From Escherichia phage N2, in sequence record ON645936.1: DNA of 64,000 nt; one strand, given 5' to 3'. Positions 1 to 50,699 of this stretch are shown piece by piece; the first letter of the stretch is position 1, and every line of letters starts with the position of its first letter. Below the pieces are notes generated by a model, which worked only from the letters and a program-made list of their open reading frames with translations, was not told where the DNA came from and did not search any database. A program made the position numbers and the translations under genes.

Positions 1-2925
<2,925 letters not shown>

Positions 2926-2953
2926 TATTAAAGCATATTAAAGAGGATTAAAA

Positions 2954-4933
2954 ATGACTTTATTATCTCCGGGCATTGAGCTCAAAGAAACTACGGTTCA
3001 AAGCACTGTGGTTAATAACTCTACTGGTACAGCAGCTTTGGCCGGTAAATTCCAGTGGGGTCCTGCTTTTCAGATCAAACAGGTTACAAATGAAGTAGAT
3101 TTAGTTAATACTTTTGGTCAACCTACAGCTGAAACTGCTGATTATTTTATGTCTGCAATGAATTTCTTACAATATGGAAATGATTTGCGAGTTGTGCGTG
3201 CTGTCGATAGAGATACCGCTAAAAACTCATCTCCGATTGCTGGTAATATTGAATACACTATTTCTACCCCAGGTAGTAACTACGCGGTTGGAGATAAAAT
3301 CACAGTTAAGTATGTTTCAGAAGACATTGAAACGGAAGGTAAAATTACCGAAGTAGATGCTGATGGAAAAATTAAGAAAATTAATATTCCTACCGCAAAA
3401 ATTATCGCTAAAGCGAAAGAAGTCGGTGAATATCCAGCATTAGGTTCTAACTGGACCGCGGAAATTTCTTCGTCTTCCTCTGGTTTAGCTGCAGTAATAA
3501 CTCTTGGAAAAATTATTACTGATTCTGGTATTTTATTAGCTGAGATTGAAAATGCTGAAGCTGCTATGACAGCAGTTGAATTTCAAACAAATCTCGAAAA
3601 ATATGGAATTCCAGGAGTAGTAGCTCTTTATCCAGGCGAGTTGGGCGATAAAATCGAAATCGAAATCGTATCTAAAGCTGACTACGCAAAAGGAGCTTCT
3701 GCATTACTCCCAATTTATCCAGGTGGCGGAACACGCGCATCTACTGCTAAGGCAGTGTTTGGATATGGACCACAAACTGATTCACAATATGCTATTATAG
3801 TTCGCCGTAATGATGCTATTGTTCAAAGTATTGTTCTTTCAACAAAGCGTGGTGAAAAAGACATTTATGACAGTAACATCTATATTGATGACTTTTTCGC
3901 AAAAGGCGGTTCAGAATATATTTTCGCAACTGCACAAAACTGGCCAGAAGGCTTCTCCGGAATTTTAACTCTGTCTGGTGGATTATCATCAAATGCTGAA
4001 GTAACAGCAGGAGATTTGATGGAAGCCTGGGACTTCTTTGCTGACCGTGAATCTGTTGACGTTCAGTTGTTTATTGCGGGTTCTTGCGCCGGCGAATCTT
4101 TAGAAACAGCATCTACTGTCCAAAAACACGTCGTTTCAATTGGGGATGCTCGCCAAGATTGCTTAGTATTGTGCTCACCACCGCGTGAAACTGTAGTTGG
4201 AATTCCTGTAACTCGTGCTGTTGATAACTTAGTCAATTGGAGAACTGCAGCAGGTTCATACACCGATAATAACTTTAATATCAGTTCAACCTACGCAGCA
4301 ATTGATGGTAACTACAAGTATCAGTATGACAAATATAATGATGTGAATCGTTGGGTTCCATTAGCAGCTGATATTGCCGGTTTATGTGCAAGAACCGATA
4401 ACGTTTCTCAGACTTGGATGTCTCCAGCTGGTTATAATCGCGGCCAGATTCTTAACGTTATTAAACTTGCTATTGAAACTCGCCAGGCGCAGCGCGATCG
4501 TTTATACCAAGAAGCTATCAACCCGGTAACCGGTACAGGTGGTGATGGTTACGTATTGTATGGTGATAAAACAGCTACTTCTGTTCCTTCTCCATTTGAT
4601 CGTATTAACGTTCGTCGTCTGTTTAATATGCTGAAAACGAATATCGGACGTAGTTCAAAATATCGTTTGTTCGAATTAAACAACGCGTTTACTCGTTCAT
4701 CATTCCGCACAGAAACTGCCCAATACTTACAGGGAATTAAAGCTCTCGGTGGAATTTATGAATATCGTGTAGTTTGCGATACAACAAATAACACTCCGTC
4801 AGTAATTGATAGAAATGAGTTTGTTGCAACATTCTACATCCAACCGGCTCGTAGTATAAATTATATCCAACTTAATTTCGTCGCAACTGCTACTGGTGCA
4901 GATTTCGATGAGTTAACTGGTCTTGCAGGTTAA
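2954..4933 (+). CDS. 18: tail sheath protein gp18
   Basis: 659-aa ORF matching T4 gp18 length and N-terminus; preceded by TATAAATA late promoter. Confidence 0.95.
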   Translation: MTLLSPGIELKETTVQSTVVNNSTGTAALAGKFQWGPAFQIKQVTNEVDLVNTFGQPTAETADYFMSAMNFLQYGNDLRVVRAVDRDTAKNSSPIAGNIEYTISTPGSNYAVGDKITVKYVSEDIETEGKITEVDADGKIKKINIPTAKIIAKAKEVGEYPALGSNWTAEISSSSSGLAAVITLGKIITDSGILLAEIENAEAAMTAVEFQTNLEKYGIPGVVALYPGELGDKIEIEIVSKADYAKGASALLPIYPGGGTRASTAKAVFGYGPQTDSQYAIIVRRNDAIVQSIVLSTKRGEKDIYDSNIYIDDFFAKGGSEYIFATAQNWPEGFSGILTLSGGLSSNAEVTAGDLMEAWDFFADRESVDVQLFIAGSCAGESLETASTVQKHVVSIGDARQDCLVLCSPPRETVVGIPVTRAVDNLVNWRTAAGSYTDNNFNISSTYAAIDGNYKYQYDKYNDVNRWVPLAADIAGLCARTDNVSQTWMSPAGYNRGQILNVIKLAIETRQAQRDRLYQEAINPVTGTGGDGYVLYGDKTATSVPSPFDRINVRRLFNMLKTNIGRSSKYRLFELNNAFTRSSFRTETAQYLQGIKALGGIYEYRVVCDTTNNTPSVIDRNEFVATFYIQPARSINYIQLNFVATATGADFDELTGLAG

Positions 4934-47297: not shown

Positions 47298-47322
47298 AAG
47301 TCCTCTGTAGTAAGTTACCCCA

Positions 47323-47330
47323 TATAAATA
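47323..47330 (+). promoter_or_regulatory. late promoter TATAAATA driving the free-standing GIY-YIG endonuclease gene
   Basis: Exact octamer 23 nt upstream of ATG, followed by AGGAG SD. Confidence 0.7.
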
Positions 47331-47352
47331 TAATTTTATATAGGAGAATATA

Positions 47353-48084
47353 ATGAAATCTGGAATATATGCTATTATAAACACTAAAACTAATAAGCAC
47401 TATATAGGAAGTGCAATTAATTTTGAAGAACGATGGAAACGACACTTTAAAGATTTAGATAATGGAAATCATCATTCAATAAAGCTGCAGCGTTCTTATA
47501 ATAAGCATGGTAAAGATGCTTTCGTATGTAAAATCATAGAAGAACTTCCATACGAAAAATCTATCATTATTGAACGTGAAAATTATTGGATGCATGAATA
47601 TGACTCAAAGGAAAATGGGTATAATATAGCAGACGCATCGTTTGGGGATACCTTATCTCATCACCCAAGAAAGCAAGAAATCCTTAATAAAATTTCAAAT
47701 GCAATTAAAAATAATAATTCAAAATTATCACCAGAAGAACTTAAGCAAAAACATGGTAGACCTAGAGACATCAAAGGTAAAACTATAGAAGAACACTATG
47801 GGTTAGATCGTGCTATAGAAATAAGCAAAAAGTTCCAAGAAAGAAACGCTGCACTTAATATGAAAGGCATCAATAATCCATATTACGGACAGACGCATAC
47901 CAATGAAGTTAGAAAACGAATTTCTGACTCACAGAGAGGTAAAAAGAAACCCCATCTAAGAGTAAGTATAGATGGGGTAGAATATCCAACAATAGCAGAA
48001 GCTGTGCGTCAAACCGGAATAAGCAGAAAACTTATATCTAAAAGATGCGCTCTAGATTGCTGGGAATCATATTTATACTGCTAA
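47353..48084 (+). CDS. free-standing GIY-YIG homing endonuclease of the I-TevI family
   Basis: 243-aa ORF; N-terminal [46 protein letters not shown] closely parallels I-TevI catalytic domain; TATAAATA late promoter and AGGAG SD upstream. Confidence 0.85.
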
Positions 48085-48330
48085 AGTTCTACATTCGTCA
48101 TATTGTTTTTCCGTTAAAACAGTAATATCATAATAGCAATCAGAAGAAGTTTTAACTGTGGAAATTTTATTATCAAAATACTCACGAGTCATTTTATGAG
48201 TATAATATTTTTTGCCATAAATGATAATAGGCTGTTCTGGTCCTGGAACTTCTAACTCGCTTGGATTAGGAAGTGTAAAAAGAACGATACCAGAAGTATC
48301 TTTAAATCGTAAAATCATATATCCTCGCAA
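48073..48330 (-). CDS. hypothetical small protein downstream of td
   Basis: 85-aa ORF with GAGGA SD; 3' end overlaps the endonuclease ORF on opposite strand. Confidence 0.5.
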
Positions 48331-48341
48331 TTAAATTAAAA

Positions 48342-48653
48342 TTATACCGCCATTTTTCCTTTCAAGACACCGTGGGACTGATAATCTTTGAGAACGAAAT
48401 CTTTAGGCCTGAGTTTAAGAATGTATTCCAATTGTTCTTTAGTAGAAAGATAACGGAATTTATAAGGTAATCCGCCTATTACCAGTTCACAAAGCTCTTT
48501 AGATTCACGACGCAAAATTTCTTTACATTGTTCTACGTGATTCATATAGATATGAGTATTACCACCAGAAAATATCAAATCTCCTGGAATAAGATTACAC
48601 ATCTTAGCTACAATATGAACTAACGCAGCATATGATGCAATATTAAATGGAAG
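48342..48653 (-). CDS. td: thymidylate synthase, exon 2
   Basis: Encodes LPFNIASYA... ThyA C-terminal region; joins in frame to exon 1 after intron removal. Confidence 0.9.
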   Translation of the reverse strand, partial: LPFNIASYAALVHIVAKMCNLIPGDLIFSGGNTHIYMNHVEQCKEILRRESKELCELVIGGLPYKFRYLSTKEQLEYILKLRPKDFVLKDYQSHGVLKGKMAV

Positions 48654-48907
48654 CATTATGTTCAGATAAGGTCGTTAATCTTATCCCGGAATTATATCCA
48701 GCTGCATGTCACCATACAGATCAGACTATATCTCCATCTTGATGAAGCAAGATGTCTATCGTTTCGAGTCACTTGACCCTACTCCCCAAAGGGATAGTCG
48801 TTAGGCATTTAGTTCAAAAGAACATTTAGCACGGGATTGTCTACTAGAGAGGTTCCCCGTTTAGATAGATTACAAGTATAAGTCACCTTATACTCAGGCC
48901 TCAATTA
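48654..48907 (-). ncRNA. group I self-splicing intron in td, ORF-less (about 254 nt)
   Basis: Starts UAAUUGAGGCCUGAGUAUAAGGUGACUUAUACUUGUAAUCUAUCUAAACGGGGAACC after exon-1 ...CUUGGGU, ends ...CUGAACAUAAUG before exon 2, matching remembered T4 td intron ends. Confidence 0.85.
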
Positions 48908-49456
48908 ACCCAAGAACACGTCAACACTTCTTTGATACCACTGCAAATCCAAATAGCCATTACGCACATTAAACTGATAGAACATATGACAAGGCGGTAA
49001 TGCCATTTGCTTGAGTTCAGCTGGATTCCATGCAGAAACAACTTGACGTCTATCATTTGGCAGTTTTTTAATACGATCAATAACTTCTACAATTTGGTCT
49101 ACACCACCAAAATCACGCCACTGTTTTCCATAAATTGGACCAAGTTCACCACTATGATATCCTAAATCTTTTGCTTGATTTTCGTAATTTTCATCCCAGA
49201 CTGTTTTGCCTTGAATTAATGAATCGTGTTGAATTAATCGTAAATCATTGACATTTGTGCTTCCTGATAAAAACCAAAGTAGCTCAGCAATGCAAGCTTT
49301 CCAGGCGAGCTTCTTAGTTGTTACTGCAGGAAAACCTTTAGTTAAATCCCAGCGTAATTTAGTACCGAACAAAGCAATTGTTCCTGTGCCTGTTCGGTCA
49401 TCAGTTTCATAGCCATTTTCAAAAATGTCTTTAATTAAATCTTGGTATTGTTTCAT
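48908..49456 (-). CDS. td: thymidylate synthase, exon 1
   Basis: 183 codons ending ...QRSVDVFLG, followed by in-frame UAA at intron start. Confidence 0.9.
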
Positions 49457-49501: not shown

Positions 49502-49864
49502 TCAATACGGTTTAGCATCAAATTTTCTTTCGATTTCAGGAGTGAAATATAATTCTTTACCACGTTTGGAAAAACGACCAATAATATGATAATTATTCTC
49601 ATCAAACGTGATATTGCCAATATCCATAGCTTTCAACCAAATATCGATATTTCTATCTAGTTTTATATCAAAATTCCAATACGGAGAACTATTACCGAAA
49701 ATACTGCAAGCGGATTCAGTGCAATAACTGCTGCTATAAATCTTGTCTTTGGGAACTACTAATTGATAGACGCCTTTAATAAACTGAGGACCCTGCCATT
49801 TTGGTTGTTTCGCGTCTTTTTCTAATAGAATAGGGTAATAATTAAAGTTCATATTTTCCGCCAC
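49502..49864 (-). CDS. hypothetical protein inserted between frd and td
   Basis: 120-aa ORF with no recognisable motifs. Confidence 0.6.
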   Translation of the reverse strand: MAENMNFNYYPILLEKDAKQPKWQGPQFIKGVYQLVVPKDKIYSSSYCTESACSIFGNSSPYWNFDIKLDRNIDIWLKAMDIGNITFDENNYHIIGRFSKRGKELYFTPEIERKFDAKPY

Positions 49865-49872
49865 GCGTTATT

Positions 49873-50699
<827 letters not shown>

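Follow-up and report, generated by a model that had tools for sequence, protein, structure and literature searches.

The thymidylate synthase gene (td) of T4-like phages, with the homing endonuclease I-TevI that its intron encodes, is the reference system for intron homing, and the td locus of Escherichia phage N2 raises the question of what becomes of such an intron once its endonuclease is gone, and by which route it was lost. We addressed this in a 64,000-nucleotide (nt) stretch of sequence record ON645936.1 (referred to here as the window), in which td lies on the minus strand and which corresponds, by coordinate offset, to about 95 to 159 kb of T4. The phage is a mosaic Tequatrovirus with ∼96% identity to its nearest deposited relatives and is identical to none of them. 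Our reading, to which we assign a probability of roughly 80%, is that td is interrupted by a functional but non-autonomous group I intron, whose I-TevI-bearing loop was lost in an ectopic (non-allelic) exchange, by recombination or gene conversion, with a paralogue, the intron of nrdD, the gene for the anaerobic ribonucleotide reductase (intron also known as sunY).

A reading of the letters and their open reading frames (ORFs) alone, referred to here as the sequence-only reading, had placed an ORF-less group I intron of 254 nt at 48654-48907, and this placement is confirmed to the base by the Rfam group I intron model RF00028 and by alignment to T4 td (reference NC_000866: exon 1, 549 nt; intron, 1017 nt; exon 2, 312 nt). 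The covariance-model search that had been proposed as a check, run over the whole window with a gathering score of 50, gave 72.6 bits (E 1.7e-16) over the complete model positions 1-253. Exon 1 ends with ...CUUGGGU at 48908, the intron opens at 48907 with UAAUUGAGGCCUGAGUAUAAGG (in a longer read, UAAUUGAGGCCUGAG) and closes at 48654 with ...CUGAACAUAAUG, the terminal G of ...AUAAUG, and exon 2 then begins with CUUCCAUUU, encoding LPFNIASYA, so that both splice boundaries and the flanking exon sequences are those first read from the letters. The insertion point lies after codon 183, between GGU (Gly183) and CUN (Leu184), the same junction as in T4. Because the intron opens with an in-frame UAA and closes with AUG, six-frame ORF calling breaks td into two pieces, 48905..49456 (183 amino acids [aa]) and 48342..48656 (104 aa), which bears out the earlier explanation of the two pseudo-ORFs. 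Positions 175 and 176 of the Pfam Thymidylat_synt profile abut across these pieces, making a seamless join, and the spliced product has the 286 aa that had been claimed and agrees with T4 Td at 271 of 286 residues (94%). No ribosome-binding site was seen in the sequence ahead of the AUG at the intron 3' end, and the 254 nt hold just one sense ORF that reaches 30 aa, a mechanical one of 31 aa with a TTG start. At the position of I-TevI in T4 there is a 12-nt hairpin and no ORF for an intron-encoded homing endonuclease. A second group I intron was not found in the Rfam scan of the whole window, with none detected in the nrdB region, and the tRNA scan returned no tRNA genes in the window.

The intron is IA2-like, with P7.1/P7.2 and P9.1/P9.2. 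We wrote out the td secondary structure as 14 helices with 73 pairs (P1-P6, P6a, the P7 pseudoknot, P7.1, P7.2, P8, P9, P9.1, and P9.2) and compared it across nine natural variants. Standard pairs were present in 98.3% of the cells and no helix was broken, against only 29-43% paired in a slid control in which the 3' partners were moved by 1-3 columns. Two-sided (compensatory) changes occur at seven pairs, in P6a, P8, and P9.2, while each helix of the core (P3, P4, P5, P6, P7, and P8) has 98-100% of its cells paired; the 5 bp of P7, the guanosine-binding helix, do not vary and hence say nothing on covariation. P1, in which a U(-1).G9 pair sits at the 5' splice site, retains 7 of 7 pairs in all nine variants, with one-sided changes at two of them. 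A minimum-free-energy fold finds P2-P6a, P7.1, P7.2, P8, P9, and P9.1 but P1 only in part, and misses P9.2; the combinations of intron nt 6 and exon position +3, where a P10 might form, are mixed (G/U, U/A, G/A, and U/U). The expectation of the sequence-only reading that the region should fold into P1-P9 with the predicted splice sites thus holds, all helices from P1 to P9.2 being intact. The synonymous codons upstream of the splice site read UUC-UUG/UUA-GGU in 16 of the 16 intron-bearing td alleles compared, whereas the closely related intronless alleles of ECO07P5, KIT06, AR1, and RB27 read UUU-CUU-GGY instead; Ozark, also intronless, has UUC-UUG-GGA before the insertion site. This codon signature goes along with the presence of the intron, as would fit a P1 pairing requirement together with co-conversion.

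Td introns with a shortened P6a are documented as active, folding, and self-splicing ribozymes (PMC2729099; also PMC8565351). Given this precedent, the RF00028 match, the intact covarying helices, and the exon join, we conclude that the intron is probably functional and predicted to be self-splicing. After transcription, the td RNA would fold into P1-P9.2, exogenous GTP would attack after the U of the U.G pair of P1, and the freed exon 1 would attack past the terminal G, joining GGU to CUU and yielding the full-length thymidylate synthase; on unspliced RNA, translation would stop at UAA, the first intron codon. Having no endonuclease gene, the intron would be unable to home by itself.

The ends of the intron match those of T4 td, as the sequence-only reading had it: nt 1-84 are identical at 84 of 84 positions and the final 157 nt at 150 (7 differences, 95.5%), so that 241 of 254 nt align to the T4 intron. 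In between, a 13-nt segment takes the place of ∼776 T4 nt, I-TevI included. The description of this segment as a short hairpin in place of the endonuclease loop is literally true, and the hairpin is the P6a of the paralogous nrdD intron, not a deletion scar. This identity emerged from a motif scan with CCCGUGCUAAAU-N(8-30)-UAAAUGCC, which returned 62 viral and 97 metagenome stretches, mostly related introns in genes other than td; a core-pattern scan of IMG/VR for td introns returned a single locus. The 159 motif stretches hold 110 distinct P6a inserts, with 59 different outer stems, and in 100 of the 110 the two ends pair into a stem of 4 bp or more, compared with 2.6% of shuffled inserts. 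Since most distinct inserts form such end stems, a short P6a hairpin is the normal ORF-free architecture in this large phage intron family. As its P4/P6 core signature the family has the 20-nt motif CCCGUGCUAAAU...UAAAUGCC, conserved exactly, and several contigs among loci L021-L179 carry clustered introns (four within 1.5 kb in L059, three in L035, and two each in L031, L079, L096, and L151).

Among the 110 distinct inserts, the hairpin of the window occurs only at locus L167, an nrdD intron with an endonuclease ORF past the core and the NrdD C terminus as its 3' exon. The two introns are exactly identical over 71 nt, a block also found in the nrdD intron of phage 236Ecol005PP and flanked on both sides by abrupt divergence from the L167 intron. 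At least 45 phage records, among them GRNsp7 and CE1, contain the L167-type intron with 100% identity, and 236Ecol005PP holds both this intron and a td intron identical to that of the window, that is, a putative donor and a putative recipient in one genome. The L167-type intron also co-occurs with I-TevI-containing td introns, for example in vB_EcoM_G2285, which we presume to be the parental configuration, and an I-TevI-containing td intron matches it exactly over two arms that flank P6a, one of 42 nt and one of 17 nt. (The I-TevII-like nrdD-intron endonuclease of 236Ecol005PP [L184, 40000-50000, locus positions 2476-3247] is annotated as two adjacent coding sequences and apparently broken.) The nrdD intron of T4 itself is of a different type, 75% identical to L167, with the P6a CAGC-AGUA-GCUG. 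Exactly this hairpin forms the P6a of the td intron of GRNsp7, within a 28-nt exact block shared with the T4 nrdD intron, while the GRNsp7 intron is otherwise 99-100% identical to that of the window. In terms of records, the two hairpins are found at least 45 and 24 times in an nrdD context and ∼4 times and once in td. The positions of these features and of their neighbors are collected in Table 1.

Table 1. Features of the td region of Escherichia phage N2 (window positions)
Feature	Position	Strand	Description
frd	49873..50454	minus	
120-aa ORF	49502..49864	minus	phrog_1928, no Pfam match; unannotated
td exon 1	48908..49456	minus	183 codons, 549 nt in T4 alignment; end ...UUC UUG GGU; Pfam Thymidylat_synt 1-175, 218 bits
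Variant end of exon 1	48908..48937	minus	last 30 nt of exon 1
RF00028 match	48702..48917	minus	group I intron model
P1	48893..48914	minus	exon CUUGGGU (48914..48908) paired with guide GCCUGAG (intron nt 9-15, 48899..48893)
td intron, ORF-less group I	48654..48907	minus	254 nt; RF00028, T4 td intron alignment, and paired helices
71-nt exact shared block	48795..48865	minus	intron nt 43-113: P3 end, P4, P5, P6, P6a, J6/7, P7 start; as in L167 and 236Ecol005PP nrdD introns
Mini-P6a hairpin GUUC-UUUU-GAAC	48812..48823	minus	intron nt 85-96, 12 nt; in place of T4 P6a stem and I-TevI loop
td exon 2	48342..48653	minus	103 codons and stop, 312 nt in T4 alignment; start CUU CCA UUU (LPF); Pfam 176-266, 82.5 bits
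Divergent td 3' end	48342..48400	minus	
Endonuclease cassette	47306..48092		787 bp; replaces nrdA.1 and 3' end of nrdA.2
GIY-YIG homing-endonuclease gene	47353..48084	plus	243 aa; intact; 570 bp from intron, not part of intron
TATAAATA (47323-47330) and GGAG (47343-47346)	47323..47346	plus	upstream of endonuclease ATG, sequence read

Shortened td introns are found in 36 of the 273 phage records that match the intron, and T4-like phages have at least seven such forms (250-445 nt) besides that of the window. The allele of the window itself occurs in 236Ecol005PP (100% identity), HMD-9 (99.3%), and CJY920 (97.5%), independently isolated viable phages in whose records the intron is unannotated and td is shown only as two "thymidylate synthase" coding sequences. 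Within Tequatrovirus, the td intron measures 254 nt in the window, 236Ecol005PP, CJY920, and GRNsp7, 262 nt in CE1 and PD112, 263 nt in BYEP01, and 320 nt in MLP2 and HP3; the length is 250 nt in SEA1 (Gelderlandvirus), 315 nt in Klebsiella EI (Marfavirus), and 445 nt in FL18 (Mosigvirus). CE1, PD112, and BYEP01 retain the 8-bp T4-type P6a stem with a 4-nt loop, as left by a plain deletion, and fragments of the I-TevI ORF remain in MLP2, FL18, and Klebsiella EI, the deletion in the last of these joining a GGAAT near the start of the I-TevI ORF to a GGAAT near its end. An ORF-less td intron is thus not new as a kind, and the same allele is already in public genomes; what is new beyond expectation is the evidence, from two independent variants, for replacement of the endonuclease loop by the sister nrdD intron's hairpin.

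SEA1 and Klebsiella EI have td exons with only 67% identity to those of the window (47-48% at third codon positions), and nevertheless their intron cores reach 90-98% identity to that of the window; in addition, one P8 variant is common to introns of different P6a types. Near-identical cores next to divergent exons, and a P8 variant that crosses P6a types, indicate that the td intron moves between lineages and recombines, and SEA1 shows that this movement applies to a mini-P6a form too. Sandegren and Sjoberg reportedly described the natural degeneration of T-even intron endonucleases in 2004, and the phrase "recent transfer of old introns," which stands in the title of that paper, is in line with intron movement between lineages.

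In the exchange that we propose, the 42-nt and 17-nt exact arms of the nrdD intron would pair with the td intron around P6a, and the nrdD intron's own ORF-free 12-nt hairpin would overwrite the I-TevI-bearing P6a of td. We prefer this as the most economical explanation because two 12/12 hairpin matches to two nrdD intron types are not a matter of chance, and the frequency of the hairpins, common in nrdD and rare in td, favors the direction from nrdD to td. Recombination between the td and sunY introns, with shuffling of domains, is said to have been obtained in the laboratory by Bryk and Belfort (Nature, 1990). Several points weigh against our reading. The 71-nt block could also have gone from an ORF-less td intron into the nrdD intron, and its P4-P5 part is td-typical and unlike the nrdD intron of T4, so that at least one transfer from td to nrdD must have occurred at some time. 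CJY920 and HMD-9 carry the td allele with no L167-type nrdD intron detectable in a listing of one place per record, and nrdD lies outside the window, which prevents donor and recipient from being shown together in this genome. The variant hairpin of SEA1, GUUC-GAAA-GAAC, is without an nrdD counterpart in the phage collection searched. Both the exchange with its direction and the intron's activity in splicing are, moreover, what we infer from the sequences.

These same observations bear on the rivals of our reading. If the 254-nt form predated the invasion of P6a by I-TevI, the L167-type nrdD intron would have taken its P4-P6 block from td; group I introns are indeed thought to have lacked ORFs in their ancestral form and to have been invaded by them later, with "core creep" (PMC3073962), the td-typical P4-P5 implies some transfer in this sense, and the GUUC/GAAC stem recurs in SEA1, a Gelderlandvirus with td exons only 67% identical. 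We nonetheless regard such an ancestral state as unlikely. Between I-TevI-containing and ORF-less introns, the cores share 95-100% identity against exon differences of as much as 33%, which points to recent exchange and not to a deep split; the td form is rare (∼4 records) where the nrdD form is common (at least 45); and in the parallel case of GRNsp7 the presumed donor has nrdD-specific flanks, with 1 td against 24 nrdD records. A plain internal deletion of I-TevI followed by drift, leaving a hairpin by chance and needing no second intron, clearly has its counterparts in CE1, PD112, BYEP01, MLP2, FL18, and Klebsiella EI. For the window it is very improbable, as the hairpin lacks the 5' strand of the T4 P6a (UGUAGGAC) and is not derivable from T4 by one deletion, and as chance is not credible for two hairpins that are each 12/12 identical to an nrdD-intron hairpin; we rejected a simple deletion origin on these grounds. 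That the intron might be dead, td being a split pseudogene in a phage that relies on host thyA, would suit the annotation of the two halves as separate "thymidylate synthase" coding sequences in GenBank records, and we give it next to no credence: the helices are all intact, with changes relative to T4 that are compensatory or wobble, both exons are in frame, full length, and 94% identical to T4 Td, the UUC-UUG/UUA-GGU required by P1 is kept in every intron-bearing allele, and the AUG at the intron end has no ribosome-binding site before it. Extending the nrdD-to-td exchange beyond the window, we lean toward the view that T4-like phages in nature rid themselves of intron endonucleases through conversion of one intron by a paralogue in the same genome, in addition to decay and deletion, that this took place at least twice, from two nrdD types, and that the cleaned intron can still spread between genera.

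A GIY-YIG gene is found near the intron. On the minus strand, the order is frd, the 120-aa ORF, td exon 1, the intron, td exon 2, an nrdA.2-like gene, and nrdA, the last two being separated by the GIY-YIG gene, which is on the plus strand. Its product matches GIY-YIG (PF01541, 55.5 bits; cutoff, 22.6), NUMOD3 (PF07460, 28 bits; cutoff, 20.4), and the homing endonuclease family phrog_314 (E 3.6e-42), and it is an I-TevI paralogue, with 111 of 242 identities end to end (46%, BLASTP) and ∼68% in the catalytic domain. Zinc-finger cysteines are absent where CKC...CSKC of I-TevI aligns, and PF20987, the DNA-binding domain of I-TevI, stayed below its cutoff (21.4 bits; cutoff, 27); an I-TevI isoschizomer would need both. 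The motif TATAAATA upstream is the T4 late-promoter consensus, and from this known motif we take it to be the promoter of the gene. The paralogue gene is present in only ∼8 Escherichia/Shigella T4-like phages, and many Klebsiella Jiaodavirus genomes carry it at ∼90% nucleotide identity; in sutha, RPN226, LH2, and TB004 it lies ∼1.5 kb from I-TevI itself.

The paralogue might act in trans, either because a break that it makes in a genome lacking it is repaired from the genome of the window with co-conversion of the intron 570 bp away or by collaborative homing with a cut at the insertion site; this would add to the nrdD exchange as an explanation of the locus, and we consider it doubtful. Speaking for it are the intact gene with its GIY-YIG and NUMOD3 domains, the 46% identity to I-TevI, the late-promoter motif and ribosome-binding site, and the precedent of a non-mobile T4 intron moved by the adjacent MobE in a proximity-dependent manner (PMC2790892). 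When the td state was tabulated in 10 carriers of the paralogue gene, however, all three states appeared: td is intronless in ECO07P5, Ozark, KP179, and Nispero, carries the complete intron, I-TevI included, in sutha, RPN226, LH2, and TB004, and has the ORF-less intron in CJY920 and the window. We therefore rejected an obligate link between paralogue and intron, and 236Ecol005PP has the same td allele without the paralogue gene. Around the insertion site, the intronless td of the carrier ECO07P5 and that of KIT06, a non-carrier, also agree in 84 of 85 nt, and because of this match an enzyme cutting the intronless site would cut its own genome. Cleavage by the paralogue at the intron insertion site is thus unlikely, judging by these junctions, and the intron might hitchhike, co-converted from a break close by.

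Some further variation surrounds the intron. The variant end of exon 1 has 8 synonymous differences from T4 (CAACGCUCAGUAGAUGUU to CAAAGAAGUGUUGACGUG), including the codon-family switches CGC to AGA and UCA to AGU; this cluster sits exactly over the I-TevI cleavage region, where the CNNNG motif is kept as CAAAG. Parts of the variant are common to 236Ecol005PP, Ozark, TB004, and Klebsiella EI, which suggests mosaic exon ends. At the other end of td, the last ∼50 nt are only ∼57% identical to T4, and the C terminus reads ...KDYQSHGVLKGKMAV in the window and ...NNYVSHPPIKGKMAV in T4, MLP2 having the version of the window; this divergent patch adjoins the side of the gene that faces nrdA.2 and the endonuclease cassette. 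The 120-aa ORF separates frd and td, which overlap directly in T4, and similar optional ORFs occur in AR1, RB27, KIT06, ECO07P5, and MLP2. An HNH "mobile endonuclease" gene interrupts nrdA in 236Ecol005PP and in RPN226 (L001 4133-6277; L007 80-3248); nrdA of the window is intact.

For annotation, these results mean that gene callers split td into two "thymidylate synthase" coding sequences in the window and in dozens of deposited T4-like genomes, leaving the intron without annotation. For the biology of homing, the natural td alleles show several independent routes of endonuclease loss, and the apparent overwriting by an nrdD hairpin provides evidence from the field that phage introns exchange domains and that the homing-endonuclease life cycle has an exit other than decay. 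If gene conversion between paralogous introns is indeed recurrent, conserved catalytic cores would act as recombination substrates, shuffling peripheral domains and purging endonuclease genes. The understanding of how group I introns work is unchanged by these findings, and RNA engineering, which now uses laboratory deletions, is offered a naturally selected minimal td ribozyme of 254 nt.

Compared with known systems, the intron is closest to the T4 td intron (1016/1017 nt, with I-TevI in the P6a loop), with which it shares the host gene, the insertion site, the P1 guide, P2-P5, P7-P9.2, and the terminal G. It differs in having no I-TevI ORF, promoter, or operator, in its 4-bp P6a stem with a UUUU loop where T4 has an 8-bp stem (UGUAGGAC/GUUCUACA), and in single pairs of P8 (A-U to U-A), P9 (C-G to U-G), and P9.2 (G-U to A-U). 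With the L167-type nrdD intron it shares the 71-nt block including the GUUCUUUUGAAC hairpin, whereas the host gene is another one, P1, P2, P7.1, P7.2, and P8 differ, the overall identity is ∼78%, and the I-TevII-like endonuclease ORF downstream of the nrdD core has no counterpart in the td intron. Other short td introns are the same intron at the same site with the endonuclease gone, as in the window, but differ in the route of loss, by microhomology deletions that leave a T4-type stem or ORF fragments or, in GRNsp7, by a swap for the T4-type nrdD hairpin. The T4 nrdB intron with MobE, and collaborative homing, likewise combine an ORF-less intron with a free-standing endonuclease within recombination distance (PMC2790892, PMC2988022); here, the paralogue does not regularly accompany the intron, and its target is probably not the insertion site. 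The laboratory td deletion introns used as ribozymes, riboswitch introns, and circularization scaffolds (∼250-270 nt) share the core, lack the ORF loop, and have a short P6a (PMC2729099, PMC8565351), but these are engineered, while the intron of the window is natural and carries the hairpin of an nrdD intron.

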